This document shows, piece after piece, positions 17,963 through 62,655 of a DNA stretch of 64,000 nt. Positions within the stretch are counted from its first letter, which is position 1; each line of letters opens with the position of its first letter. The position numbers were made by a program, and so were the translations under genes. The stretch is from Patescibacteria group bacterium (GTDB lineage Bacteria; Patescibacteriota; Patescibacteriia; Buchananbacterales; UBA6539): NCBI GenBank assembly GCA_041662625.1, contig JBAZSB010000001.1, forward strand, positions 471,093 to 535,092, read 5' to 3'. The notes beneath the pieces were generated by a model. That model made no database searches and was not told where the DNA came from. It saw nothing but the letters and a program-made list of their open reading frames with translations.

Positions 17963-19288
17963 CTACTTTCCTAAATACTTTCTTCCCTTCAACTTCTCCG
18001 GTAAGTATTCTTGCTCTTCTTTCCAGTCGTAGTTGGGTGAATACTTATAATCTCTGCCATAATTTAAATCTTTCATCAGTTTGGTCGGGGCATTACGTAA
18101 ATGCAAAGGCACTGGTTCGTCCATAGTATTTTTTACGTCTTCTTGGACTCGACCATAAGCCTGGTAGACTTCGACTGATTTCTTGGCCCGGGCCATATAA
18201 ACCACACATTGAGCCAAAATAATGTTACATTCCGGCATCCCGATGAAGTGGCAGCCTTGGTAGCAAGCCACGGCCTGCTCTAAGGCTTTGGGGTCAGCCA
18301 GACCAATATCTTCAACCGCCATCCGCACTAAGCGCCGGGCAACATAGAGCGGATCTTCACCGGCTTCCAGCATTCGCCCCAGCCAATAAAGCGCCGCATC
18401 GGCATTACCGCCACGAACTGACTTATGCAAAGCCGAAATAATGTTATAGTGCTGCTCGCCGTCTTTATCATATAAATAACTTGATTTCTGGAGTGACTCT
18501 TTGATGATTTTATTGTCTAAAACAATTTTACCTTGAGAATTCGGTTTTGTCGATTTAACGGCAAATTCCAAAGCATTCAAAGCAACCCGGGCATCACCAT
18601 TAGCTAAAGACGCTAAGTAGCGGCTGGCCTCATCATTAAGACTAATTTTTAAATTAGGAAAGCCAAGTTTTAAAGCCCGCTCTAAAATTTTTTCAATATC
18701 ATGATCACTCAGTTGATTTAAAACAAAAACTCGGCAGCGCGACAGTAAAGCCGACACGACTTCAAAACTCGGATTTTCAGTGGTTGCCCCAATTAAAGTA
18801 ATAATCCCCCGCTCGACATAAGGCAATAAGCCGTCCTGTTGGGCTTTATTCCAGCGGTGAATTTCGTCAATAAATAAAATCGTCCGCCGGCCGTGAAGCT
18901 TGCGCCGCTCCTGAGCCTCTTTGATTACTTCCCGAAATTCTTTCACCCCGGAATTAACCGCTGACATTTGGACAAAAATTGATTTTGTCATTTTGGCGAT
19001 GATGCGAGCCAGTGTGCTTTTGCCCGTTCCCGGCGGCCCCCAAAAAATCATGGAAGGAATCTCGTCTTTTTCCATGGCTTGACGCAAGAGCTTGCCCGAA
19101 CCGACCACTTCTTTTTGACCAACAAAATCCGCCAAGCTCTCTGGCCGCAGGCGGTCAGCCAAGGGAGCATTGGCTTTTAGATCGGCTTTAAATTTTTGGT
19201 CGAATAGATCATCCATAAATAATTTTGAATTTTTAAACTCTAATTTTGAATCAATACTATAATATTTAAATATTAGAAATTGATTCAA
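17963..19288 (-). CDS. rarA: Replication-associated recombination protein A (AAA+ ATPase RarA/MgsA); the real start is probably the internal Met ~24 codons downstream of the ORF start
   Basis: Walker A GPPGTGKSTLAR, sensor motifs and the MgsA C-terminal domain are present. The first 24 codons overlap a conserved intergenic motif. Confidence 0.85.
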   Translation of the reverse strand: MNQFLIFKYYSIDSKLEFKNSKLFMDDLFDQKFKADLKANAPLADRLRPESLADFVGQKEVVGSGKLLRQAMEKDEIPSMIFWGPPGTGKSTLARIIAKMTKSIFVQMSAVNSGVKEFREVIKEAQERRKLHGRRTILFIDEIHRWNKAQQDGLLPYVERGIITLIGATTENPSFEVVSALLSRCRVFVLNQLSDHDIEKILERALKLGFPNLKISLNDEASRYLASLANGDARVALNALEFAVKSTKPNSQGKIVLDNKIIKESLQKSSYLYDKDGEQHYNIISALHKSVRGGNADAALYWLGRMLEAGEDPLYVARRLVRMAVEDIGLADPKALEQAVACYQGCHFIGMPECNIILAQCVVYMARAKKSVEVYQAYGRVQEDVKNTMDEPVPLHLRNAPTKLMKDLNYGRDYKYSPNYDWKEEQEYLPEKLKGRKYLGK

Positions 19289-19313
19289 AATTCAAAATTT
19301 AAAATTAATCTTT
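19217..19313 (-). promoter_or_regulatory. Recurring ~47-nt upstream element (coding-strand TTGAATCAATTTCTAATATTTAAATATTATAGTATTGATTCAAAATT) with two TTGAWTCAA palindromes flanking a -10-like TATTAT/TATAGT. Other copies are at 23682-23787, 47755-47849 and 55858-55973.
   Basis: Four hand-aligned occurrences, all directly upstream of minus-strand genes (rarA, the OFOR beta subunit, the 46795..47754 membrane gene, map). The spacing fits -35 TTGAAT, 18 nt, -10. Confidence 0.45.
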
Positions 19314-23681: not shown

Positions 23682-23787
23682 ACTTTATCAATTTTTAATT
23701 TTGAATTTCTAATTTTGAATAAATTTCTAATAATTCAATATTCTAATATTCAAAATTGATTAAAAATTTAAAATTAAAAATTCGAAA

Positions 23788-28550: not shown

Positions 28551-29036
28551 CTAGCCGCCCCGCCGCTTGGCCGCCTTCTCCTGCATCGTTTTGATCTGAC
28601 CTTCAAGTAAGGCCAAAGGAACATTGGTGTCGGCGGCTAACTTCTCCGCCAAAATCTTGCGGCGCCGAGCCTCCCAAATCACTGCTCCCTGGAGCAAATC
28701 AAAGGGTGGCTTGCCTTCGTCCGCCCGTTCTTGATTGATAGGGGCCAAAACAATTATAGCTTCGATCATATCAGCGGCGCTAAACGCAAAGTCATAGCCT
28801 TGCGCTAAAAGACCCTGCATGACCAACAGCAGCCGGTCATGAAACCGGCCAGGAACAATGGCGGTACCCAGGACCTGCTCGGCCAATTTGACTCTTAGGG
28901 GGTCAACCCCAAGGTATAACCGCCAATAGTCAGCCGCGCTAAGACCGGCCTTCCTTCTTTTCGTTTCTTCAGTTGATGCAGCGGGTTGAGCGGCGCCCGG
29001 CACACCTTTATCTCTTCGAGACCAAGGCCAATTCAT
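28551..29036 (-). CDS. GC-rich (~58%) hypothetical protein
   Basis: 161 aa. Strong SD GGAGGAAAG 7 nt upstream. The composition is foreign to its surroundings. Confidence 0.45.
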   Translation of the reverse strand: MNWPWSRRDKGVPGAAQPAASTEETKRRKAGLSAADYWRLYLGVDPLRVKLAEQVLGTAIVPGRFHDRLLLVMQGLLAQGYDFAFSAADMIEAIIVLAPINQERADEGKPPFDLLQGAVIWEARRRKILAEKLAADTNVPLALLEGQIKTMQEKAAKRRGG

Positions 29037-29148
29037 CGGCTTTCCTCCACTGGTTACAAACTCCCTCCGTTAGTAAAGTATCTTAGCAGAAACTGAATTA
29101 CTTTTCAATATCGATAATCACCAAAGATGTTATGTGGGACGGGGGTTT

Positions 29149-29264
29149 GGGGGTCAACATTGACCCTTCGACAAGCTCAGGGTCACTTCGAGCAAGGTCG
29201 AGAAGTGAGCCCAACGCGAGCAAAAGATAGTTTGATTGGCACCAAAGGCGAATTGTTGACCCCC
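29149..29264. repeat. GC-rich ~116-bp element bounded by 10-11-bp terminal inverted repeats GGGGGTCAAC(A)/ (T)GTTGACCCCC. It belongs to a dispersed family; relatives are at ~29270-29370, 34417-34475 (inverted), 35395-35460 (inverted) and 39470-39555.
   Basis: Shared words CCCTTCGAC(A/T)A(C/G)GCT, TCGAGCAAG, GAGCGAAGC, GGAGGCGAAA. Members are 55-60% GC within ~30% GC spacers. Confidence 0.45.
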
Positions 29265-29439
29265 AAAACTTTTGGTTACTTTTGGTTACAAAAGTAACCC
29301 TCGCCGCCTCTCGATAAACTCGAAGCGGCCTTGAGCGAAGCCGAAAGGCCGGAGGCGAAAGACGAAAAGAGATTTAGAAGCTAAATCAACCTAGGTGATG
29401 ATGACAGAAAAATAGCTTGATAGAACTGAGTTTGATCTA

Positions 29440-29475
29440 ATAACAAAAGAGAACCGTGTGTCCACGGAACTCTTT
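29440..29475 (-). terminator. Rho-independent terminator of hup (AGAGTTCCGTG-GACA-CACGGTTCTCT + T-run on the minus strand)
   Basis: Hairpin directly 3' of the HU gene. Confidence 0.5.
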
Positions 29476-29495
29476 TGCAAAACAATGTTACTCAA

Positions 29496-29777
29496 TTACA
29501 ATATTGCTTCTTTGGCCACTTTGGAAACTCGGAATTTAACCACGGTTTTGGCCGGGATCTTGATTTCTTCACCAGTGGCTGGGTTGCGGCCCATTCTGGC
29601 TTTCCGGTTGACTTTAACTAATTTGCCGACACCCGAAATGGTAAATTCACCGCTGCTTTTTACTTCTTTGTAAGCCAGCTCTACAAACTTGTCTAAAAAG
29701 CTAGCGACGTCTTTTTTACTCATGCCTGTGCTTTCAGCTAAAGCGGCAAGCACTTGTGATTTTGTCATTTTTGCCAT
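29496..29777 (-). CDS. hup: DNA-binding protein HU
   Basis: 93 aa; MAKMTKSQVLAALAESTGMSKKDVASFLDKFVELA...RNPATGEEIKIPAKTVVKFR is the HU/IHF fold signature. Confidence 0.85.
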   Translation of the reverse strand: MAKMTKSQVLAALAESTGMSKKDVASFLDKFVELAYKEVKSSGEFTISGVGKLVKVNRKARMGRNPATGEEIKIPAKTVVKFRVSKVAKEAIL

Positions 29778-33000: not shown

Positions 33001-33687
33001 TTATTTATTGTTTATTGCTTTACATACGTTACCAATCTTCTTAAAGCCTGTACTACAATACCAACTGCTTCCGGCGATATAAGCATTAGCGGGAGCTACT
33101 ACTTTAACGCAATTGCTACCGACCTTCTTAAAACCATTATTACAGTACCAATTACTTCCCGCAATATACGCATTCTCTGGTGCAATTACTTTGACACAAG
33201 AATTGCTGACTTTTTTATACCCATTATTACAATACCAACTACTTCCAGCGACATAAGCATTCGCAGGGGCTACTACTTTGACACAATTATTGCCAACTTT
33301 CTTAAAACCATTATTACAGTACCAATTACTTCCCGCGATATAAGCATTTGCTGGTGCTACAACTTTAACGCAACTATTGCCTATCTTTTTGTAACCGCTG
33401 TCACAGCTAAAAGTAATTCCTGAAGTATAAGCATTATTTGGTACTTTTTTTAGCGGACAATCGTAACAATCCTTATAATAGCCACTGGGTGGATAAATTA
33501 CTCCGCCACTAGCCGGGTAAGTTGGGTACTGGCAAGGATGCCCTGCATCTCCACAGGTATACGAACCCGAATCGGATGGACAAGAATGCCAACGATGGCA
33601 ACCTGACTGGTGTGCCTCAGCTGGCGTAAACAAAAAAGGAATACAAAATATTCCCAAAAAACTAAGCAAAAAGATAATTTTTCTCAT
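33001..33687 (-). CDS. Secreted Cys-rich protein with ~4.5 tandem 29-aa repeats
   Basis: Signal peptide, then repeats of CVKVVAPANAYIAGSNWYCNNGFKKVGNN (87-bp DNA period at ~33010-33420). Confidence 0.55.
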   Translation of the reverse strand: MRKIIFLLSFLGIFCIPFLFTPAEAHQSGCHRWHSCPSDSGSYTCGDAGHPCQYPTYPASGGVIYPPSGYYKDCYDCPLKKVPNNAYTSGITFSCDSGYKKIGNSCVKVVAPANAYIAGSNWYCNNGFKKVGNNCVKVVAPANAYVAGSSWYCNNGYKKVSNSCVKVIAPENAYIAGSNWYCNNGFKKVGSNCVKVVAPANAYIAGSSWYCSTGFKKIGNVCKAINNK

Positions 33688-34415: not shown

Positions 34416-34579
34416 AAAGCGCTATGTTTATCTCGCCGTAGCCCCAAAGCGTAGTCGAAGGGCGGAGGCGGATTGATTACTATATTTAATTTACAAGTTT
34501 ATAGTATTACATCTGGTAAACCTTGTCAAACAAAAAGCCCGCCTGAAGCGGGCTGGATGAATGGCTTAGAATTACAGGG

Positions 34580-34778: not shown

Positions 34779-35303
34779 TTATTTTCTTTTTTTAGTCTTC
34801 AATTTCTTGGCCGCCGGTTTGCTTTTTTTGCTCTCTTTTGTTGCCAAGGCTTTCTTTACTTCTTTAGCAGCCGGCAGAGAAGCGGTCGGGTTTAAAGCTT
34901 GTAAAATCTTATCAAGTTTGGCGTTTAAAATTTCAAACTGTTGCCTGGTTTGATCCGGGGCTTTAGGGGAAGAAGAACTGCTCCCTTTGCTAAAACAGTT
35001 GCTGCAGTATACTGGCTTATCACCCGAGGGCCGGAAAGGCACTTCACATTTATTGCCGCATTTGGCACAGGTAGCCTGATACATTCTTTTATCTCTGTCT
35101 CTGCCACCCGGTCGGTTAAAATCCCGCCGTGGCCCCTGCTGTTGCTGACGCCGGTTTTTGAAGCAATCATTGCAGTAAACTGGTTTGTCGCCAGAAGGTC
35201 GAAAAGGCACTTCGCAGGCATTGCCGCAAGCAGCACAAGTAGCCTGATATTTGGCCTGGGAGTCTTTATGGTCGAATTCTTTGGTTTTGTTGAAAAGTTT
35301 CAT
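34779..35303 (-). CDS. Protein with two tandem CxxC-x17-CxxC zinc-ribbon modules and a Lys-rich tail
   Basis: Internal duplication YQATCAACGNACEVPFRPSGDKPVYCNDCF / YQATCAKCGNKCEVPFRPSGDKPVYCSNCF. Confidence 0.5.
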   Translation of the reverse strand: MKLFNKTKEFDHKDSQAKYQATCAACGNACEVPFRPSGDKPVYCNDCFKNRRQQQQGPRRDFNRPGGRDRDKRMYQATCAKCGNKCEVPFRPSGDKPVYCSNCFSKGSSSSSPKAPDQTRQQFEILNAKLDKILQALNPTASLPAAKEVKKALATKESKKSKPAAKKLKTKKRK

Positions 35304-35459
35304 ATTTTTTTTCTTACCTTGATTTAATCTACTTTTTTAAGTATCCCACATCCTGGAACAAAAGTCAATTTTGAATCAAACAAAAAATAGCCGGGTAAAC
35401 CAGCTGTTTTTGGACAAAGCCGCGTCGTTTGCGAACGGCGTGACAAGGCTCGCTTTGGG

Positions 35460-35798
35460 CTAACAACTACATTTTGCCTTTCTTGCCACTTTTAATAATT
35501 TAATAATCTGCTCCTCATTGATATCTTTCAATGAATATATTTTTATGTGCCGCATTGTCTTACCATTTCCTTCAAACAAATCTAATTCTTTTTTTGATAA
35601 ACCGCGGGTAGCAAATCCTATATTAACATGATCCTTTAAGGCAACAACATAATATTTCTTTCCATACCAGGGCACACCTACCCAAATCTTCTCTTTAACT
35701 TTCGGCAATGCTTTCGTTATAATCTTATGCAATTTCTGACAAATTTCTTTTTGCGGTGATTTTTGTTTTTTGATATAATTGTTGATTTCTTGATTCAT
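35460..35798 (-). CDS. DUF1801 (YdhG-like) domain protein
   Basis: 112 aa; the pattern KIWVGVPWYGKKYYVVALKDHVNIGF fits the DUF1801 fold. Confidence 0.55.
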   Translation of the reverse strand: MNQEINNYIKKQKSPQKEICQKLHKIITKALPKVKEKIWVGVPWYGKKYYVVALKDHVNIGFATRGLSKKELDLFEGNGKTMRHIKIYSLKDINEEQIIKLLKVARKAKCSC

Positions 35799-36736: not shown

Positions 36737-37091
36737 ATAAAAGTCATCCCGAACTCGGTTCGGGATCTCATAAAATATTTAAGAGATTCTGAAACAAGTT
36801 CAGAATGACAATAAGAGTATTACTTTGTTTCTTTATGCACGGTATGTTTTTTGCAGTGCCGACAGAATTTATTTAATTCCAGCCGGGTTTTAAGAGTTTT
36901 TTTATTTTTTTTGGAAAAATAATTGACTCTTTTACATTCCTTGCACTCTAATCGAATCAAGTTGTCCTGGGACATAAATTTAACAGGTTAACAATTAACA
37001 ATTAACAATTAACTTGAATTGCTAAACTGATAATTGATAACTATGATTAATAGTTAATTATTAATAGTTAATAGTTAATTGTTTGAAGTGG

Positions 37092-37249: not shown

Positions 37250-37269
37250 ATATATACAACATTTGACAG

Positions 37270-37626
37270 TTAACATTTAACAATTAACGACTTGGAAAAA
37301 CCACCTAATTGCTTAGCAATATTTTCACAATCAATTGCTAACTTTTCAAACATCTCAATGCTTATAAGGTTATTATCTCTCATCACATCCAAACAAGCAA
37401 AAACTTCACTAACCGAGCCCAAGGCTATCTGCAGGAATCTATAAAATTCCTTATCCGACTTTTTTGCTGAACCTTCGGCAATGTTTAAGATTACAGAGAG
37501 AGCCGCTCTTCTAATCTGATCCTTTAAACTGAAATCTTTCAGGTTATCGGAGACTTTAAGTATATTTCTATAGAATTCCTTAGCTTTAATGTAAACCTCA
37601 AAGTCTAAAAAACGAAAGGTTTTCAT
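37270..37626 (-). CDS. Four-helix-bundle protein of the 23S rRNA intervening-sequence (IVS) protein family
   Basis: 118 aa; IRRAALSVILNIAEGSAKKSDKEFYRFLQIALGSVSEVFACL matches the IVS-protein signature. It is embedded in a tRNA cluster. Confidence 0.75.
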   Translation of the reverse strand: MKTFRFLDFEVYIKAKEFYRNILKVSDNLKDFSLKDQIRRAALSVILNIAEGSAKKSDKEFYRFLQIALGSVSEVFACLDVMRDNNLISIEMFEKLAIDCENIAKQLGGFSKSLIVKC

Positions 37627-37701
37627 AGCGCAAAAAATTAGTAATAAATGCGCTATGTTGAAAGCTAAATGCTAATTGTCAACTGTTAATTGTTTATCTG
37701 G

Positions 37702-39389: not shown

Positions 39390-39556
39390 ATTTAGCTATT
39401 TTAATAAAAATTTCGAATATTTAATGCCATCTTATTATACAACATCTGTAGTATTTTTCAATTCTTAGTTACAAATTATAATTTTGAAATTCGACCATTC
39501 GACTCCGCTCAGGTCGCCTCGAGCAAGCGAAGCGAGTCGAGAGGCGAAATTAAAAA

Positions 39557-41056: not shown

Positions 41057-41213
41057 AAGAAATAATAAAAATATGAATAATTATACTAAAATTTATAAGG
41101 ATTTTCAATAATCAAATCAATAAAAGAGTGTTAACATTGACTTTTTTTTAAAAATAATGTAATATATCTAGTCGAAATGGGATAGGCCCATAAAGACACC
41201 AAGGAGGAACACC

Positions 41214-41774
41214 ATGAGAAATCTGAGCGTAGTAATCGCCCTAGTCGCTGTCTTGTTGATCAGCACTGCCGCCCACGCGGCCCAGCAGGTCACCATTGAC
41301 CTCGACAAGCTGACTCCGGAAGCGGCGGCCGAACTGATGAAGCTCAAGAAGGCGGCGGAAAACCCGGAACCGGAGATGCCAACGGCGGAACAGTTGGAAA
41401 ACTACGTCGACCTCGGGGCAAAGATTGGCCAAGCCATCGCAGCCACGTGCAAAGAGCTGTCCGTAGAGGTCAACGAGTTCGTCAGAACGCCGGTTGGGAT
41501 GATCACCATGGGGTTGATCATCTGGAAGGTGGCAGGCACCGAAATCTGGGGTATCGTTGGCGGCACATCCGTCTGGGTAGTTATCACTCTTATTCTCATG
41601 TGGTCTTTCCACTACTTCCACATGAGCAAAAAGGTGAAAGGTAAAGAAGGCGACGAATGGGTCCGACGATATGAATTCAGCGACTGGACATATGAAGCCT
41701 GGTCGGCTGGCATCCACCTGGTATGTTGGGCGGCGATCACTATCACCTGCCTCGTCATCGTCTTCTACCACTAG
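41214..41774 (+). CDS. GC-rich (~60%) secreted/membrane protein, unknown function; inserted between scpA-associated genes and scpB
   Basis: 186 aa with a signal peptide and 3 TM helices. SD AAGGAGGAAC. Upstream TTGACT-17-TAATAT promoter. Composition is foreign to its surroundings. Confidence 0.5.
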   Translation: MRNLSVVIALVAVLLISTAAHAAQQVTIDLDKLTPEAAAELMKLKKAAENPEPEMPTAEQLENYVDLGAKIGQAIAATCKELSVEVNEFVRTPVGMITMGLIIWKVAGTEIWGIVGGTSVWVVITLILMWSFHYFHMSKKVKGKEGDEWVRRYEFSDWTYEAWSAGIHLVCWAAITITCLVIVFYH

Positions 41775-41853
41775 CAACCAGCACCCCCACCCACCCGCGA
41801 TCTCATGAAATTGTCGGAGCCCGGAGTAGCATTGCTACCTGGGTTCCTTTTCT

Positions 41854-45882: not shown

Positions 45883-46185
45883 GTGGTAACGTTACAAAAA
45901 GTGTCAATGTATCGCTTGGTGATTGTGGACGGAATGCCAGTAATTGTTCCGGACCAAATCAATGACGCTCTTGATGCGGGGGCCACTGTCAAAGGGTTGG
46001 TCAAAATTGTTCCGGACCAAACCAATGACGCTCTTGATGCGGGGGCCACTGTCCAAGAGTTGGCCAAAGCCGAGCCCTGCCCGCACTGCCAGCGGGGCAC
46101 CAGCTTTCTCGTTCTCCTCCAAGGAGACGAAACGAGCCGCTCTGAGCATCGCTACTGCCTGAACTGTGGCGAAAAGACTGAATAA
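45883..46185 (+). CDS. GC-rich small protein with internal 21-aa tandem duplication and C-terminal CxxC...CxxC zinc ribbon; GTG start
   Basis: SD AAAGGAGA. 63-bp direct repeat encoding IVPDQ(I/T)NDALDAGATV(K/Q). CPHCQRG...CLNCGEK. Confidence 0.45.
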   Translation: MVTLQKVSMYRLVIVDGMPVIVPDQINDALDAGATVKGLVKIVPDQTNDALDAGATVQELAKAEPCPHCQRGTSFLVLLQGDETSRSEHRYCLNCGEKTE

Positions 46186-46191
46186 GTCTGA

Positions 46192-46776
46192 CTATCTCCT
46201 CTTTGCTTTTGCTCTCTTACGACCTGACCGCTTGGTCGGTCTTTTTTTTGCTGCTTTTTTCGGTTTTTTCTTGGCCACTTTTTTCTTTGGCTTGGCCTGC
46301 AATTTATATCCGCCCGCCTTGGCAAAATTAGCTAACTTGGCTTGTTCCAAATCAATAAAATCTTTGGCTTTCATCCGGACTGAATCGGTGAAACTGCCGG
46401 CGGACAAAATTATGTCTTTAGTTTTCAACAAGCTTTTATCGACCCAGACTTCAACTTGGTGCAGCCCGCCAAAAGCCGTCATCGTTCCGGGCTTAACCTT
46501 AAAAATTTTCAGCATCACTTTTTCGTTAGGAATAGAAATCTTTTTAACTTTCAGGGCCTGCTTCAGCTTCTTTAAGTCAATTCTCATATGAGCCGGCACC
46601 ACCGCAATAATATAAGCTTTATCCGCAGCAATTAAAAGACTTTTAGCTATATCCTTAAGTTCCCGGCGCAAAGTTTGGGCCGCATCATAGGCGGTGTAAA
46701 CGGTTTTATGGGTCAGCTCATCATATTTAGCCATTTTTTTGTCTAAATACTTTTTGGTGTTTTTAGGGATAGACAT
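46192..46776 (-). CDS. YbaK/ProX-type aminoacyl-tRNA deacylase domain protein with Lys-rich C-terminal tail
   Basis: 194 aa; the central domain resembles YbaK (Cys-tRNA(Pro) deacylase) and the C-terminus is highly basic. Confidence 0.6.
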   Translation of the reverse strand: MSIPKNTKKYLDKKMAKYDELTHKTVYTAYDAAQTLRRELKDIAKSLLIAADKAYIIAVVPAHMRIDLKKLKQALKVKKISIPNEKVMLKIFKVKPGTMTAFGGLHQVEVWVDKSLLKTKDIILSAGSFTDSVRMKAKDFIDLEQAKLANFAKAGGYKLQAKPKKKVAKKKPKKAAKKRPTKRSGRKRAKAKRR

Positions 46777-46794
46777 AAAGTTAAATGTTAATTG

Positions 46795-47754
46795 TTAATT
46801 GTTGATCGCTTCCACCTGAGGTACAAACTCAGGTCCTGTCTTACTATTTAAAGAATCAATCACCATTGAATTAAAACACTGATAGCCAACCTGATGATAA
46901 GACCAATCTTTGTTCCCGCCATAGTAGCCATAATCCGACTCATTGGGGTCAACAGCTAAAGAAAAAGTGGCACAAAGCTCGTACTCTTTTTGCCCAAGCA
47001 CTCTGTAGTCATAGGCCTTTTTAGTTTGGGGATCCTTAAATTGGGAAAATTTGGCAGCCGATAAATCAAGGGGCAATTCTTTATTTTGCCAATAATAATC
47101 ACCAATCAGACCATCAATGTTGTACAAATCATTGATTCTTTGCTGATCGAGTTTGACCGCCCGGGCGTGGGCCGGCGAATCAACAACGGCAAAGCCGCCA
47201 ATTACTGCCGCTAAAGTGATAATAATAACAAGGCCAAATGAAATCTGAGAAGTCAGACTCCTTTTACTGAAATCTTTTCTGATTAAATCATAAAGGTAAT
47301 AGCCAAAGATACTGCCGGCGATTACTAAAATCACTAGGGTTTTCAAAATTACCGGTAAGGCATAATCGCCGTCCAAAAAACGGAAAAGCTGATAAATCAG
47401 CCGGCCAATAATGGTCAGGGCGGAAACAAAAAGCATTAAATAAGTCAGCCAGCGGTGAATCCCACTTTTATGATCGAGTTTACCAAGTTTGTAATTATGA
47501 TGAAGCCAAGCCGAAACCGCTAAAAATATTGGCGTTATAATCACGACCGAAGCAATGCCCACCTTAAGCGGACTTTGAGAAAATCGGGCCACGTAGTCGA
47601 TTGCTTTAGCGGGGACAAATTTATTAATCAGCTGAAATAAAATCATGCCTAAAGAAATTGCCAGCCAGCCAACAGTGGCCAAACTTAATAAATTCAAAAA
47701 AGCGTCCAAGGCTCCCTTGCCCTTGAGTTGATTGGATTTAGATGATTTTTTCAT
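46795..47754 (-). CDS. Membrane protein with C-terminal extracytoplasmic domain
   Basis: 319 aa, 5 TM N-terminal. Confidence 0.4.
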   Translation of the reverse strand: MKKSSKSNQLKGKGALDAFLNLLSLATVGWLAISLGMILFQLINKFVPAKAIDYVARFSQSPLKVGIASVVIITPIFLAVSAWLHHNYKLGKLDHKSGIHRWLTYLMLFVSALTIIGRLIYQLFRFLDGDYALPVILKTLVILVIAGSIFGYYLYDLIRKDFSKRSLTSQISFGLVIIITLAAVIGGFAVVDSPAHARAVKLDQQRINDLYNIDGLIGDYYWQNKELPLDLSAAKFSQFKDPQTKKAYDYRVLGQKEYELCATFSLAVDPNESDYGYYGGNKDWSYHQVGYQCFNSMVIDSLNSKTGPEFVPQVEAINN

Positions 47755-47849
47755 ATTTTTTAATCAATTTTTAATTTTTAATTTCAAATTTTGATTCAAT
47801 ATTATAATATTCTAATGTCCAAAATTGATTCAAAATTAAAAATTCAAAA

Positions 47850-48155
47850 TTATTTATTCTTCAGGGGTAGTTTTTGCTGCACCCCTAATAACCGACGCGC
47901 AATTTTTGCTCCTTTCGGCGTCAATTTCACCTGCCTAATAAACCACTTGTGGGGTGTTTTCCAGCCGTAACCAATCACCAGTTCTTTTTTAATCAACCGT
48001 TCAACACTTTTAGTAATAGTATTAACCAAATCTTTTGGTTTAGGCTTAGCTTTCGAATTAGTATAAAATCTCTCCAGATTTGCCTTAGAAATTACCTTAT
48101 CTTTGGCTTGGACGCATTGTTTCAAGATATATTTTTGTAATGTGGACAGTTTCAT
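47850..48155 (-). CDS. Small basic protein, possible DNA-binding
   Basis: 101 aa, Lys/Arg-rich. Immediately preceded by a 15-bp perfect inverted repeat. Confidence 0.4.
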   Translation of the reverse strand: MKLSTLQKYILKQCVQAKDKVISKANLERFYTNSKAKPKPKDLVNTITKSVERLIKKELVIGYGWKTPHKWFIRQVKLTPKGAKIARRLLGVQQKLPLKNK

Positions 48156-49346: not shown

Positions 49347-49391
49347 GGGTTTATAGTTAACTGTTAAATGTTAATGGTTAACTGTTAATTG

Positions 49392-50822
49392 TTAGTCAGC
49401 CATAGCTGTATCAAAGCCTTCCTCGGCTTCAACGCCTTTGGCTAAATCAATGTTAGCTTCCTTTAAGGCTTTCTTACTGGCTGGACTGGGTGCACCCATC
49501 ATCAAATCGCGGCTGTCGCCAGTTTTGGGAAAAACTATGACTTCGCGAATATTGGGTTCATTTTGTAAAATCGCCATAATCCGATCAATGCCCGGCGCAA
49601 TCCCGCCATGCGGCGGCGCCCCGTAAGTAAAAGCTTCCAGCATATGGCCAAACCTAGCCTGGATTTCTTTTTCCCCGACTCCTAAAAGTTCAAAAACTTT
49701 TTGCTGGACTTCCCGCAGATGAATCCTGATTGAGCCGCCGGCAATTTCAAAACCGTTTAAGACTAAATCATAACCATAGGCCCGCCATTTTCTTGGCTCA
49801 TCCGGGTATTTTTTCATATCTTCCAAGTTTGGCATGGTAAAAGGATGATGACTGGCGACTAATTTCTTTTCAGTTTCGGAATATTTAAACATGGGCGGAT
49901 CAATCAGCCACATGAAAGCCACTTCATTGGAATCTTCTTTGTTAGTTCTCAAGTCAGGCTTATCGGTTTTGTATTTTTTCAAACATTCAGCATGGGTCAG
50001 GCGCGGGAACGGTTTAGCCGTGATTTTCTTTTCCGGATACAAAGTTTCAACCAGCTTAATCATCATCGGTTCCATTAACGAAAATATATCTTCTTGATCA
50101 ACAAAACTCATTTCTAAGTCCAGCTGAGTAAATTCCGCCTGGCGGTCACCGCGGGTATCTTCATCACGAAAGCAGCGGGCAATCTGAAAATATTTTTCCG
50201 CACCGCCAACCATCAGTAATTGCTTAAATTGCTGGGGTGACTGGGGCAAGACATAAAATTGGCCTGGCCAAAGCCGGGCAGGCACTAAAAATTCTCTGGC
50301 CCCTTCCGGCGTGCCTTTGGTTAAAATTGGCGTTTCCACTTCCAAGAAACCCTGCTGATCCAAATAATCACGGATAAATTTGACCACCCGATGGCGCATG
50401 ATCATGTTATTTTTCATCCGTTCCGACCGCAAATCCAAATAGCGGTATTTCAACCGAATTTCCTCGCTGACTTGGCTGGTATCTTTATCTAATTCAAAAG
50501 GTGGAGTTTTTGCCTCATTTAGAATTTCCAATTCCTCCCCTCTCATCTCTACGGTGCCAGTGGCAATCTTTTCATTGACCATATTTTTGGGCCTTTGGTT
50601 GATTGTCCCTTTAATTCTGACTACAAATTCCGACCGCAAGCTATTGGCTAATTTATGAGCCCCTGCAAAAGTCGGCTCAAAAACCACCTGCAAAATGCCG
50701 CTGCGGTCCCGCAGGTCAATAAAAATAATTTTGCCATGATCGCGCCGGGTATGGACCCAACCTCTGACTTCAACCTTCTGCCCAACTTGATTTACTACCT
50801 CTGCGATTGCTGTTCTTGCCAT
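49392..50822 (-). CDS. aspS: Aspartate--tRNA ligase (compact form without a recognisable GAD insertion)
   Basis: N-terminal OB fold. LPQSPQQFKQLLMVGG..FQIARCFRDEDTRGDRQAEFTQLD (class II motif 2, AspRS-type QSPQ signature). Motif 3 GGIAPGIDR. Confidence 0.75.
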   Translation of the reverse strand: MARTAIAEVVNQVGQKVEVRGWVHTRRDHGKIIFIDLRDRSGILQVVFEPTFAGAHKLANSLRSEFVVRIKGTINQRPKNMVNEKIATGTVEMRGEELEILNEAKTPPFELDKDTSQVSEEIRLKYRYLDLRSERMKNNMIMRHRVVKFIRDYLDQQGFLEVETPILTKGTPEGAREFLVPARLWPGQFYVLPQSPQQFKQLLMVGGAEKYFQIARCFRDEDTRGDRQAEFTQLDLEMSFVDQEDIFSLMEPMMIKLVETLYPEKKITAKPFPRLTHAECLKKYKTDKPDLRTNKEDSNEVAFMWLIDPPMFKYSETEKKLVASHHPFTMPNLEDMKKYPDEPRKWRAYGYDLVLNGFEIAGGSIRIHLREVQQKVFELLGVGEKEIQARFGHMLEAFTYGAPPHGGIAPGIDRIMAILQNEPNIREVIVFPKTGDSRDLMMGAPSPASKKALKEANIDLAKGVEAEEGFDTAMAD

Positions 50823-55857: not shown

Positions 55858-55973
55858 AAACTCAATTTTTAATTTTGAATTTCAATTTCCCGCCGCAGCG
55901 GGATCCTCAATTTTTCACCAAATCATAGATTTGGGGGAAATCGGGACAATATTATAATATTCAAAATTCGAAT

Positions 55974-56753
55974 TTAATTAGTGATGGTTATTATCTCATG
56001 TCCATTATTCGTCACGACAATAGTATGCTCAAAATGGGCACCTAAGCTGCCATCAGCCACCACAACGCTCCATTCATCCTCCAGAGTTTTGATTAAATAG
56101 TCACCGGCACTGACCATTGGTTCAATCGCTAAAACCATACCGGCTTTCAGTTCACAATCTTTCTGGCTCTTATCAACATAATTAGGAATTCTTGGATCTT
56201 CATGGACCTGATAACCCACGCCGTGGCCGACCAATTGCCTGATGACGGAAAAACCCTGGGCTTCAACATATTGCTGGATACTACGGGAAATATCCGAGAT
56301 GTGATTGCCCGGCTTAACTTGATCAATCCCTATTTCTAATGATCTTTTGGTCACTTTAATTAATTTCCGGGCCAGTTGGCTGACTTTACCAATCCCAATG
56401 GTTACGGCCATATCTGTAAAAAACCCGCCATCCTTTGGGTATTTCATCCCGATATCAATATTTAAAACATCCCCGGTTTTAAGCTGATAGTTTGAAGCTG
56501 GGGTATGAACGATTTGGTCATTGACTGAAGCGCAGATGGTGGTAGGAAAAGCCGGCTCACCCTGGCGGCTGCGGTAATTCTTAAAAGAAGGGATTCCGCC
56601 CTTCTCTGTAATCAAGTGTTCGGCTAACTGATCTAAATCAATTGTCTTAACGCCGGGTTCAGCTTTTCTGACTAATTCGGCTAAAACTTCGGCCAAAATC
56701 CGGCCGCCTTGGCGCAAAACTTCAATTTCCTCAGGGGTTTTTATAGTAACCAT
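55974..56753 (-). CDS. map: Methionine aminopeptidase type I
   Basis: Pita-bread fold. Metal ligands D..D..H..E..E in blocks DIGMKY, GHGVGYQVHE, EPMVS and FEHTIVVT. Confidence 0.9.
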   Translation of the reverse strand: MVTIKTPEEIEVLRQGGRILAEVLAELVRKAEPGVKTIDLDQLAEHLITEKGGIPSFKNYRSRQGEPAFPTTICASVNDQIVHTPASNYQLKTGDVLNIDIGMKYPKDGGFFTDMAVTIGIGKVSQLARKLIKVTKRSLEIGIDQVKPGNHISDISRSIQQYVEAQGFSVIRQLVGHGVGYQVHEDPRIPNYVDKSQKDCELKAGMVLAIEPMVSAGDYLIKTLEDEWSVVVADGSLGAHFEHTIVVTNNGHEIITITN

Positions 56754-57498: not shown

Positions 57499-57735
57499 TT
57501 ACTTAATCAGCATCAACAAATTCTCCTCATCAAATTCGGAAATTTCACCTTTCTCTCTTAACTCCCCAACTACTTTTTTTATCTCTTCTGCACTCACTCC
57601 CCCATCAATTAGCTCTTTAACTAACGCACCATAGACATTCGGCTGTTCCCGATAATCTAAGCTTTTGATTTGATATAAAGCATCTTTAATCTGCTGTCTG
57701 TTTTTGAAAACTTTTTTGGCAGAAAATAAAGCCAT
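57499..57735 (-). CDS. Small hypothetical protein between secY and adk
   Basis: 78-aa ORF. The usual infA/rpmJ genes are not present in this position. Confidence 0.35.
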   Translation of the reverse strand: MALFSAKKVFKNRQQIKDALYQIKSLDYREQPNVYGALVKELIDGGVSAEEIKKVVGELREKGEISEFDEENLLMLIK

Positions 57736-57769
57736 AAGTTAACTGTCAAATGTTAACTGTAAACTGTTA

Positions 57770-59047
57770 TTATAGGCCTTCGTAATCCCGCATTGTTAGC
57801 TGGGATTCGATCTGTTTATAGGTTTCAATCACTACAGACACAACAATCAGCAAACTGGTACCACCAATAGTCAGACTGGCCATTCCAGTGAAACCCTGTA
57901 AAATCAAAGGTAAAACAGCAATAATACCTAAAAATAAAGCCCCCGCTAAAATGATTCGATTAGTTGTATTAGTCAGGTATTCTTCCGTATGCTTACCCGG
58001 CCTAATCCCGGGAATAAAACCACCTTGTTTTTGAAGATTTTCCGAAATCTGATCAGGCTTGAATACCACTTCTGTGTAGAAATAGGTAAAACCAAAAACC
58101 AAAACAAAATATAAAATACCGTAAAAAAGCTGGTTTTGAAAAAGGGCAATCGTCTTTTCGGCAATACTGACTAGAATTGCGGTTTTTGCGCTCAAGAAAA
58201 ATTGAGCAATCATAGGTGGGAACAAAATAATGGAAATGGCAAAAATAATCGGGATGACTCCGGCCATATTAACTCGCAATGGCAAGTGAGTGTTGACACC
58301 GCCATACATTTTCATTCCCCTGACCCGCTTAGCATAGGAAACCGGGACATTACGTTGACCCTCAGTGATTATTACCACCCCAACAATAGTTAAAAGCGCA
58401 ATCCCGGCAAACAAAAATAAAGTTATAATTTGTGATTTATCAAAAACTAAAAAAGTCTGCTGGATAGCACTCGGCAGCTGGGCCACAATGCCGGCGAAAA
58501 TAAATAAAGAAATACCATTACCAATATGTTTTTCAGAAATTAGTTCACCAAGCCACATCAAAAAAACAGTTCCAGCCGTAGCCGTCACTAAAATCATTAC
58601 TAACCGCCAAGGGGTTAAATCAGTAAAAATTTCTACGCTTGACTGTCGCAACAAAGCAATCAGACCATAAGCCTGCATCATCCCTAAAGGAACAGTCAAG
58701 ATTCGTGTCCATTGGTTAATTTTATGCCGACCGGCTTCACCATCTTTGGAAATTTCTTCCAGGCGCGGAACAATCATTACTAAAAGTTGAAAGATAATTG
58801 AAGCGGTAATGTAAGGGGCAACACCCATGGCGACAATGGAAAAACTTTCCATTCCCCCGCCGGACAAAATATTCATGATGCCCAAAAGTTGATTAGCGGC
58901 AAAAAAATCTTTGATTGCTGCTGTATTAATACCAGGTATCGGAATATGAGCGGCAATTCGAAAAATAACCAGCATTGCGGCAACAAACAAAATGCTGTCT
59001 CTTAAATCTTTAATTTTCCAAATTTGAATCAATTTTTTCCACCACAT
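57770..59047 (-). CDS. secY: Preprotein translocase subunit SecY
   Basis: 425 aa, 10 TM. Position after rplO in the spc operon. Confidence 0.9.
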   Translation of the reverse strand: MWWKKLIQIWKIKDLRDSILFVAAMLVIFRIAAHIPIPGINTAAIKDFFAANQLLGIMNILSGGGMESFSIVAMGVAPYITASIIFQLLVMIVPRLEEISKDGEAGRHKINQWTRILTVPLGMMQAYGLIALLRQSSVEIFTDLTPWRLVMILVTATAGTVFLMWLGELISEKHIGNGISLFIFAGIVAQLPSAIQQTFLVFDKSQIITLFLFAGIALLTIVGVVIITEGQRNVPVSYAKRVRGMKMYGGVNTHLPLRVNMAGVIPIIFAISIILFPPMIAQFFLSAKTAILVSIAEKTIALFQNQLFYGILYFVLVFGFTYFYTEVVFKPDQISENLQKQGGFIPGIRPGKHTEEYLTNTTNRIILAGALFLGIIAVLPLILQGFTGMASLTIGGTSLLIVVSVVIETYKQIESQLTMRDYEGL

Positions 59048-62308: not shown

Positions 62309-62617
62309 TTAGATTATTTCTTTACATTTTTTACAAATTCGAACTTTTTTCTGATTGACCAAAATCTTATAACCAGGATGAGTGACCTTATTACAACGAG
62401 AGCAAACTAAGGCGATATTACTAATTGCCAAAGGGGCGGGAAACTGGATGCGTTGGCCTTTTTCACCTTGCTTTTTTGGCCGCATATTTTTAAATAGTAA
62501 ATTAACTCCCTCAACTGAAACTTTGTTGCGTTTATTAAAAATCTGTAAAACTTTACCCGTTTTACCTTCATCCTTACCCGTTAAAACTTTTACTTTGTCA
62601 CCTTTTTTTACCTTCAT
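62309..62617 (-). CDS. rplX: Ribosomal protein L24 (KOW domain)
   Basis: MKVKKGDKVKVLTGKDEGKTGKVLQI. Confidence 0.85.
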   Translation of the reverse strand: MKVKKGDKVKVLTGKDEGKTGKVLQIFNKRNKVSVEGVNLLFKNMRPKKQGEKGQRIQFPAPLAISNIALVCSRCNKVTHPGYKILVNQKKVRICKKCKEII

Positions 62618-62655
62618 AATATGTTAATTGCTAACTGTTAATTGTTAAATGTTGT
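62618..62655 (-). promoter_or_regulatory. Tandem TTAACAATTAAC-type units (coding-strand ...ACATTTAACAATTAACAGTTAGCAATTAACATATT-ATG) directly upstream of rplX. Related copies are at 36960-37090, 37250-37290, 37655-37695, 46777-46810, 49347-49391 and 57736-57769.
   Basis: The motif ends within ~5-10 nt of start codons in at least five places. Confidence 0.4.

Follow-up and report, generated by a model that had tools for sequence, protein, structure and literature searches.

Several described systems resemble in part the very small double hairpins that are the subject of this article. The RPEs of Rickettsia are short palindromes that lie in spacers and also in frame in unrelated housekeeping genes, without destroying them, and they encode no transposase (PMC10969869). 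They are ~100–150 bp long and fall into Rickettsia-specific families, each with a conserved peptide in one frame. The REP, BIME and REPIN sequences, which Y1 transposases (RAYT, TnpA-REP) mobilise, are small, GC-rich, imperfect hairpins that are non-autonomous and are found singly, in tandem or as inverted doublets (PMC3116915, PMC3333891, PMC8266576). They are species- or clade-specific and extragenic, with a conserved GTAG or CGTC head and a flanking RAYT gene. In the IS200/IS605 group and its PATE-type derivatives the element is defined by two hairpins, and the usual long terminal inverted repeats are missing. In IS608, cleavage sites are recognised through base pairing with short sequences beside the hairpin foot (PMC3201880), and the target word always flanks the left end while a related word ends the element (PMC3201880, PMC3597680); there are two separate tetranucleotide guides, the pairing of which is partly non-canonical. 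Bacterial MITEs (miniature inverted-repeat transposable elements; Correia/CREE, ERIC, RUP, BOX, Nezha) are short, multicopy and non-coding, with inverted-repeat ends and short flanking direct repeats, a presence that varies between strains and an occasional intragenic location (PMC10969869). They typically measure 100–400 bp, can be traced to a known insertion sequence (IS) family and have target duplications unrelated to their internal sequence. The locus described here lies in a 64,000-nucleotide stretch (the window) of a Patescibacteria group bacterium of the Buchananbacterales (GCA_041662625.1, contig JBAZSB010000001.1, positions 471,093 to 535,092), a genome of the candidate phyla radiation with ~40% GC, and occupies the spacer between hup and a gene for a protein of 161 amino acids.

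We read this structured spacer as a 332-bp block that includes two copies, A and the inverted B, of a 48–56-nt double hairpin (the module), and the modules themselves as selfish, non-autonomous miniature insertion elements, possibly moved as single-stranded hairpin DNA; the probability of this reading is put at about 0.6. The modules form a distinct and very small palindromic family that is present here, absent in relatives and found elsewhere as clean additions to unrelated genes. Taken together, the evidence argues that the family stands closest to RPE, REPIN and IS200/IS605-derived elements, and against a family of open reading frames (ORFs) or a dedicated small RNA (sRNA). Selfish and non-autonomous mobility, with no demonstrated host benefit, is what we infer from the distribution and anatomy set out below.

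The module follows the scheme T-[CCC-TTCGACARGCTCA-GGG]-rc(T)-[CYTC-GAGC..GTCGA-GRRG]-T, in which the central trinucleotide is the reverse complement of the trinucleotide on both flanks. The element proper is 42 nt long and consists of two imperfect inverted arms of 19–20 nt around a 3-nt centre. Either arm can fold into a hairpin of its own, and the loops are conserved: TTCGAC-N2-3-GCTCA (TTCGRC in the search form) for the first arm, GAGC-N-GTCGA for the second. Because the stems share 3–4 nt they cannot both form fully at the same time, and since the two loops are mutually inverted (TCGAC..GCTC and GAGC..GTCGA) the module can also fold as one longer hairpin. Three full copies (A, B and C) and one half unit (D), which has a single hairpin, are found in the window (Table 1). 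All four are intergenic and they are divided equally between the strands, with A and C antisense and B and D sense to the surrounding minus-strand genes. Module C starts 10 nt past the stop codon of a Peptidase_S11 gene, upstream of tpiA, and half unit D separates a promoter-like sequence, which is conserved, from the leader hairpin of an NYN gene. When 29040-29460 was compared with the window by blastn-short, only chance-level matches were returned between the copies; the family is therefore detectable only through pattern and structure.

Table 1. Features of the hup spacer and module copies elsewhere in the window (positions counted from the first letter of the window)
Feature	Position	Strand	Details
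161-aa gene	28551-29036	-	ORF of 55% GC (genome 40% GC)
Promoter-like site of the 161-aa gene	29080-29108	-	TTGAAA-17-TAAGAT with TG; abuts the left block junction, intact
332-bp lineage-specific block	29107..29442	.	coordinates include the 4-nt AATA repeat at each junction; lacking in the relative L001
Left arm of the perfect 13-nt long-range inverted repeat, TTTGGGGGTCAAC	29146..29158	+	from the inverted-repeat listing and direct reading
Module A	29161..29208	+	TGA-CCC-TTCGACAAGCTCA-GGG-TCA-CTTC-GAGCAAGGTCGA-GAAG-TGA; model match 29157-29213, 70.4 bits, E = 3e-14
Right arm of the perfect 13-nt long-range inverted repeat, GTTGACCCCCAAA	29255..29267	+	from the inverted-repeat listing
Perfect 11-bp hairpin, GGTTACTTTTG-GTTA-CAAAAGTAACC	29274..29299	.	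arms 29274-29284 / 29289-29299
Module B	29304..29351	-	CGG-CCT-TTCGGCTTCGCTCA-AGG-CCG-CTTC-GAGTTTATCGA-GAGG-CGG; inverted relative to A; model match 29299-29355, 52.6 bits, E = 3e-10
hup terminator hairpin	29444-29477	-	kept in L001; right-hand context, outside the element
hup	29496-29777	-	normal HU gene
Half unit D	34424..34472	-	one hairpin, loop TTCGACTACGCTTT, no second hairpin; weak model match 34428-34469, 11.6 bits, E = 0.44
Module C	39492..39547	+	CGA-CC-(A)-TTCGACTCCGCTCA-GG-TCG-CCTC-GAGCAAGCGAAGCGAGTCGA-GAGG-CGA; model match 39488-39552, 53.9 bits, E = 2e-10

An earlier, sequence-only reading of this DNA had reported a family of related GC-rich repeats dispersed over the hup spacer and three further intergenic sites. 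This observation is partly confirmed: it was largely right, although the repeating unit and where it ends had to be corrected, as had one of the sites listed as members. The shared words that it cited are all present, and the GC-rich tail that it saw corresponds to module B. The family holds for A, B and C and, in part, for D, whereas the remaining listed site, 35395-35460, has no match to the covariance model described below. The modules were said to be 55–60% GC within spacers of ~30% GC; they are in fact 54–65% GC and their flanks vary between 18 and 41% and are not uniformly ~30%, so that this description agrees only in part.

A two-hairpin pattern taken from the window copies has three matches in the window, namely A, B and C (the last at 39498). 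A stricter form of it was scanned over the JGI metagenome collection and gave 88 loci, the window included, many of which lie in GC-rich coding sequence and match by chance. Of these 88, about 28, from soil and water metagenomes, have the full module architecture; these outside modules are mostly on contigs of 63–71% GC, with five on contigs of 41–50% GC. In the resulting alignment of 31 sequences, five of the six pairs of stem 1 are changed on both sides, and stem 2 (in its extended form, 7 bp) is 98% paired, with changes on both sides in four pairs. In 500 shuffles the observed values were never attained, and shifted registers drop to 27–52% paired. A covariance model built mostly from the 28 outside sequences, and run unfiltered over the whole window, recovers A, B and C at E = 1e-10 to 1e-14. 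The common architecture of the outside modules and this recovery show that the family is real. It is also apparently undescribed, in that it has no Rfam family and no paper containing its sequence was found: searches of the literature by peptide strings, DNA words and topic returned no description of it.

The same covariation could be accounted for if the modules were structured RNA elements that act in transcripts of the genes nearby, whether as sRNAs, as terminator-like signals or as hairpins for processing or stabilisation, with the stems under selection for RNA folding. Compensatory changes in both stems agree with this, as do the position of C just behind a stop codon and that of D in a 5' leader, and the TTCGAC strand is the sense strand in eight of the nine intragenic copies inspected. 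The whole insert (336 nt), moreover, folds better than its shuffles on both strands (z = -4.4 on the plus strand, -5.7 on the minus strand). However, Rfam does not recognise the modules: only tRNAs (five, elsewhere in the window) reach gathering scores and none do so at module sites, and between 28400 and 29500 nothing is matched even at E up to 10. The opposed orientations of A and C as against B and D relative to their neighbours, and the overlap that prevents both stems from forming fully, also speak against an RNA. The block contains no promoter and no T-tract terminator, a terminator scan of the region having returned only the conserved hup terminator (29454-29467), and the modules are without a T tract. 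Finally, copies that sit within unrelated housekeeping coding sequences and are missing in close relatives fit a parasite better than a regulator. A role as structured RNA is thus unlikely, though among the alternatives to mobility it is the one to be taken most seriously, and the sRNA proposed in the sequence-only reading finds no support. Wobble-pair asymmetry was also considered as a guide to the functional strand; it is biased by the search pattern and mixed elsewhere, and no conclusion was drawn from it.

Syntenic DNA from relatives was retrieved by way of the TIM protein. One relative, L349 (20.7 kb syntenic), has a TIM that is 88% identical and a gene order that is kept over ~14 kb. Its Peptidase_S11-to-TIM spacer has no module C, and at the NYN leader the 49 nt of half unit D are replaced by CA, with both the upstream promoter-like sequence and the downstream leader hairpin conserved. 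Since C and D are missing from the syntenic sites in four related Patescibacteria genomes, their gain in this lineage is the simpler reading. When module C and one CGA are taken out, what is left is AAATTCGAAATT, a word typical of the AT-rich spacers of this genome (17 observed against 2.8 expected). The covariance model gave no match at or below E = 0.4 in L349–L354 together with L001 (~85 kb), and a scan of the relatives' spacers for core words found none.

For A and B the comparison rests on L001, a 1.3-kb contig that is ~88% identical and represents the sole other genome carrying the 161-aa gene. Here hup and the 161-aa gene are arranged alike, with a spacer of just 130 bp. The alignment is clean at both sides and exactly 332 bp drop out, from 29107/29111 to 29438/29442, with AATA at each junction. 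The block (46% GC) falls within the few bases that separate the -35 of the 161-aa gene's promoter-like site from the conserved hup terminator, and disturbs neither. It is no assembly artefact, because the independent JGI assembly L304 reproduces the stretch at 100% identity. The block is carried by this lineage and absent in the nearest known relative, and it is made largely of palindromic repeat units. Across the window, copies of the family are multiple and variable between relatives, with three full modules and one half unit in 64 kb that are absent at the matching sites in L001 or L349.

These differences might also have arisen by loss, if the block were ancestral spacer that relatives have shed by microhomology-mediated deletion and if template-switching during the replication of quasi-palindromes had locally made and homogenised its hairpins. 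At the L001 junction there is AATA microhomology, of the kind that such a deletion would leave, and the block does contain micro-duplications (ACTTTTGGTT twice, GGGTCAA/TTGACCC three times), while elsewhere the unit occurs in tandem arrays. Such a history would nevertheless require that three loci each underwent a precise loss independently, and that C was lost in four relatives. Local slippage, in addition, offers no explanation for the same 13-nt loop and architecture in distant phyla, or for clean 45-nt additions in unrelated genes. We consider it decidedly unlikely as a general account, and retain gain of the modules by insertion.

Within the block, the inverted repeat that the sequence-only reading placed at 29149-29264 is real and extends to a perfect 13 nt. 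It flanks 96 bp and encloses module A; on folding 29144-29270 as DNA the 13-bp stem closes (z = -3.9). GGGTCAA in its left arm also pairs locally, with TTGACCC at 29160-29166. The perfect 11-bp hairpin reported there is likewise borne out, and is preceded by a tandem 10-nt duplication. It is the status of the 116-bp stretch as a repeated unit that falls, since comparison of the region with the window by BLAST gave matches at chance level only and the indel is of 332 bp with other boundaries. The terminal inverted repeats differ with the unit considered: the 332-bp block has no significant ones, the non-recurring 116-bp unit has its 13-bp arms, and the 42-nt module has its two imperfect arms.

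This bears on the proposal that the 116-bp segment bounded by GGGGGTCAAC / GTTGACCCCC is a classical MITE, a cut-down DDE-transposon with terminal inverted repeats of which the other sites are diverged copies. The perfect inverted repeat and its closing stem are what recommend it, and the module itself consists of two inverted arms with 3-nt direct repeats flanking them. But in the window neither the 116-bp unit nor its arms occur a second time, similarity to the other sites stops at the 48–56-nt module, and the boundaries of the L001 indel lie 40 bp and 175 bp outside the arms. Nor does the 116-bp unit have a flanking direct repeat, and the flanks of the module complement its centre (in 25 of 31 copies, with six triplets), as a target duplication made by a transposase would not. 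Whereas known bacterial MITEs have target duplications independent of their interior, the module is essentially two arms plus 3 nt with a flanking repeat tied to its centre. A classical MITE is therefore quite improbable. Of the three origins offered in the sequence-only reading, a mobile MITE-like repeat remains the best supported as to mobility; the mobile unit is the ~48-nt module and not the 116-bp segment. A related suggestion, that A is a split palindrome with an 88-nt insertion and a 7-nt duplication (TTGACCC) in the palindrome TTTGGGGGTCAACATTGACCCCCAAA, was rejected despite its appeal for A, as it does not agree with where modules end in general, nor with the L309 kinase described next, in which CCC must belong to the element.

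Many of the outside modules lie inside long ORFs, and Pfam domains flank or span the insert in genes for ArgRS (L288, 44% GC), TopA (L291), a BioF-type class I/II aminotransferase (L319) and a Ser/Thr kinase (L272). The clearest footprint is that of the L309 kinase, the N-terminus of which reads MTLSAGTRL-[ALRQAQGDLEQGREV]-GPYETQAAIGAGGMG, where the uninterrupted relative in L272 reads MPLAAGSRIGPYEIRALLGAGGMG. The two forms, TRL-[15 aa]-GPYE and SRIGPYE, differ by a gain of exactly 45 nt in L309, made up of 42 nt and one TCG, and TCG stands just once in CTC GGG, the inferred empty site. In-frame residence in genes is a trait of RPEs, and for this family it is known from the outside copies, those of the window being all intergenic. 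The descriptions of RPEs set the modules apart nonetheless: modules are 42–56 nt long, are read in three frames, occur in several phyla including Patescibacteria and couple their flanks to their centre. A single 24-nt unit also lies apparently in frame in an adenylate-cyclase-like ORF of a Binatia metagenome-assembled genome (MAG; L038, 2620-2960), as read by eye.

The frames in question are those of PFDKLRV.., DPSTSSGS.. and ALRQAQG.., and because host genes read the module in all three it cannot represent a protein family; the peptide similarity noted in the sequence-only reading is thereby explained as following the conserved DNA. That the sites are remnants of a family of small Arg/Glu-rich protein-coding genes had been suggested from translations that share peptide-like strings (LRQAQG..EQGREV), and JGI indeed annotates a 56-aa ORF over module A. 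This 'hypothetical protein' (P0003; 29127-29297, plus strand) is the translation of module A and its surroundings, and when used as a probe for further copies of the block it retrieved only itself among 5.8 billion proteins. Conservation, moreover, is at the nucleotide level and accompanied by covariation at paired sites, and the modules are just 16–19 codons long. A coding origin is scarcely credible.

An unusual feature of the family is the relation between its flanks and its centre. The flanking trinucleotides are identical in 27 of the 31 modules, as in the target-site duplications that the sequence-only reading had suggested looking for; both are, however, complementary to the centre in 25 of the 31. 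Six flanking triplets occur among the outside copies (CGA, TGA, CGG, TCA, TTG and TCG), and those of the window are TGA in A, CGG in B and CGA in C. With six triplets so coupled, the flanks are not independent of the element, and an ordinary target duplication made by a transposase is for that reason disfavoured. In two outside copies the flanks are still identical despite a mutated centre. Six outside copies are nested in loop 1 of another module, precisely at its CGA.

This T ... rc(T) ... T coupling appears to match the logic of IS200/IS605 elements best, and its pattern, together with the 45-nt gain in the L309 kinase, is compatible with guide pairing. The element would arrive at a site and add 42 nt plus one copy of the flanking trinucleotide, to be tolerated in spacers and, in other bacteria, in frame within proteins. 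It may move as single-stranded hairpin DNA with an enzyme supplied in trans, as IS200/IS605 and REP/REPIN elements do. Through its central triplet the element would choose a 3-nt target of complementary sequence, which is kept on the 5' side; the triplet would also pair with, and so define, the element's own 3' end. Pairing of this kind would produce the apparent 3-nt duplication and the net gain of 45 nt, and nesting in single-stranded loops would follow from it too. The resemblance to IS608 lies in the target word at the left end and the related word that ends the element; the difference is that in the module a single central trinucleotide would serve both ends by Watson–Crick pairing, in an element about ten times smaller. 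In contrast to the IS200/IS605 group, the four copies in the window (a small sample) show no bias in orientation, and no TnpA turned up among the window ORFs selected for scanning.

The double module is much less widely distributed than the loop word taken together with its closing pairs. One form, CCTTCGACAAGCTCAGGRTSAC, occurs at 26 viral-contig loci, and TTCGACAAGCTCAGG on more than 120 viral contigs among the matches listed. In 144 distinct core instances the two closing pairs are C-G in 82–83%, and the third pair covaries (C-G 63, T-A 32). The unit is arranged in single hairpins (GTCAYCC-loop-GGRTGAC), in tandem arrays with a period of 23–24 nt (L197, L240 and L136) and in inverted pairs that form long hairpins, and MAGs that contain core units bear the labels Rickettsiales-like, Methylococcaceae, Limnocylindrales, Binatia, Anaerolineae, Dehalococcoidales and Vicinamibacterales. 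Neither PLSDB plasmids nor GenBank phages gave a match to the module or a hairpin dimer, and the two-hairpin pattern had none in viral contigs. A first scan of genome contigs, with a pattern that omitted the second hairpin, had been too loose, ~110 of its 120 matches being chance occurrences in GC-rich coding DNA.

Single hairpins, inverted pairs and the double-hairpin module are thus all seen, and short imperfect palindromes that also occur as inverted doublets are a trait of REP and REPIN sequences. The modules differ from REPs in that their conserved part is the loop (TTCGACARGCTCA), that copies lie inside genes and that the core is common to several phyla; their consensus has no GTAG or CGTC head, and no RAYT gene turned up, though no systematic search was made. 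GC-rich palindromic clusters of mitochondrial genomes offer an analogy only, with GC-rich hairpin units strewn through AT-rich spacers and sometimes into genes (PMC2800124). Two low-GC metagenome contigs contain the module in a larger common context (L264, 3680-3860; L314, 270-450), with GGACGCTGAA words on each side and then a terminator-like hairpin, which suggests composite elements built around the module, like the 332-bp block of the window. The GC-rich clusters and double-hairpin elements of fungal and sponge mitochondria are organellar, and their sequences are unrelated to those of the module.

A number of observations weigh against the reading of the modules as mobile elements and of the spacer as their product. 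No transposase turned up here or near the outside copies, although only selected window ORFs were scanned and no systematic search was made. The four window copies, which lie in one replichore, have no common orientation (two plus, two minus; n = 4), and a strictly lagging-strand-specific mechanism of the IS200/IS605 type would not obviously predict that. Single modules are thermodynamically unexceptional (z = -0.6 to -3.3), and the minimum-energy fold of C favours pairing of arm to arm over two hairpins. The outside sample was collected with a pattern derived from the window, so that the loops and part of stem 2 were constrained from the outset. Rather than a guide, the coupling of flanks and centre could reflect selection that maintains both of the overlapping stems, or templated correction inside quasi-palindromes. 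As to the block, modules A and B make up about 90 of its 332 bp. The other ~240 bp are left without a recognisable repeat and consist of AT-rich ends, the 13-bp long-range stem around A, and the 11-bp hairpin together with the tandem duplication of 10 nt; they are unaccounted for, because the block itself is not repeated, lacks terminal inverted repeats and is found nowhere else, there being no other copy of it as DNA in the window (by BLAST) or as a called ORF in the protein collection. Finally, with a single relative for comparison and AATA microhomology at the junctions, a deletion in L001 would also fit the 332-bp difference.

Mobility of the modules can also be taken further than the reading preferred here. 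They may represent undescribed, cross-phylum, ultra-small (42 nt) elements in which the central trinucleotide is a mutable guide both to a 3-nt single-stranded DNA target and to the element's own 3' end, which would be retargeted by mutation, would nest in the loops of relatives and would enter essential genes in frame by 45-nt steps, moved by a widely distributed enzyme. This more specific proposal is tentative, and the odds are against it.

Of the genes on either side of the block, the hup gene is ordinary, and the 161-aa protein has one other homologue only among 5.8 billion proteins and belongs to no Pfam family. The changes between the two copies of its gene are coding-like, with 20, 14 and 39 differences at the three codon positions and 31 synonymous against 28 non-synonymous codon changes. 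By its TIM protein the organism falls near Candidatus Buchananbacteria, at 64–65% identity.

Other repeats and a further lineage-specific stretch are found in the window. A 23S_rRNA_IVP gene (four-helix-bundle; 37270-37626, minus strand) lies between tRNA-Tyr and tRNA-Thr and is bracketed by GTTAA-rich AT repeats that recur along the window (37042-37083, 37258-37288, 37657-37694, 46773-46810, 49356-49393, 57724-57775 and 62616-62653). In L352, L353 and L354, GIY-YIG or IVP genes occupy the corresponding tRNA/TPR neighbourhood, which looks like a hotspot for small selfish genes. In a Limnocylindrales MAG (L065, 2600-2790), two inverted core words flank a fragment of ~170 bp that is GIY-YIG-like by eye (MLQCADGHYFVGVTS...EHQDG) and too short for Pfam. 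A link between the modules and GIY-YIG enzymes was dropped as unsupported, crude regular-expression scans being empty and the nearby GIY-YIG and 23S_rRNA_IVP genes of relatives being without modules. At 41057-41853 there is an orphan gene of 58% GC (41214-41774, plus strand) with its own promoter-like site and ribosome-binding site, on the strand opposite to its neighbours, that encodes a signal peptide and membrane segments; ~650 bp at this locus are lineage-specific, because the ScpB and PEP-utilizer genes that flank it are just 141 bp apart in L349. A match to module A at 41288-41311 falls inside the coding sequence of this gene and is probably a coincidence. Palindromic intergenic repeats of ~90 nt, which are AT-rich and unrelated to the GC-rich modules, are found at 19216-19307, 23692-23783, 47761-47852 and 55862-55979 and are rich in words of the AAATTCRAAATT type (17 observed against 2.8 expected). 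Three internal duplications complete the list: an 87-bp tandem repeat in four to five copies (33038-33472) within a 228-aa ORF (33001-33687), a 63-bp tandem duplication of 94% identity (45942-46067), and a 79-nt duplication inside a zinc-ribbon (zf_Tbcl_2) gene (35003-35249).

For annotation, the modules are a source of spurious 'hypothetical proteins', as with the 56-aa ORF over module A, and they are presumably what lies behind the recurrent PFDKLR, STSSG, LRQAQG and PELVEG peptide strings of metagenomic proteomes. They may serve in strain typing, as four of four sites vary between close relatives. On a wider view, one sequence family of ~45 nt is common to Patescibacteria, several soil phyla and viral contigs, and by adding 15-residue loops to housekeeping enzymes it extends the RPE phenomenon far past Rickettsia. 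It is unusual that the trinucleotides of flanks and centre are coupled, the more so in six triplet variants; this coupling is readily testable in vitro, and if it reflects target choice by base pairing then the module would be the smallest self-guided mobile DNA known. As far as this genome goes the finding is modest, amounting to a few selfish repeats that sit in spacers, and its value is as an entry point to a widespread and apparently undescribed family.

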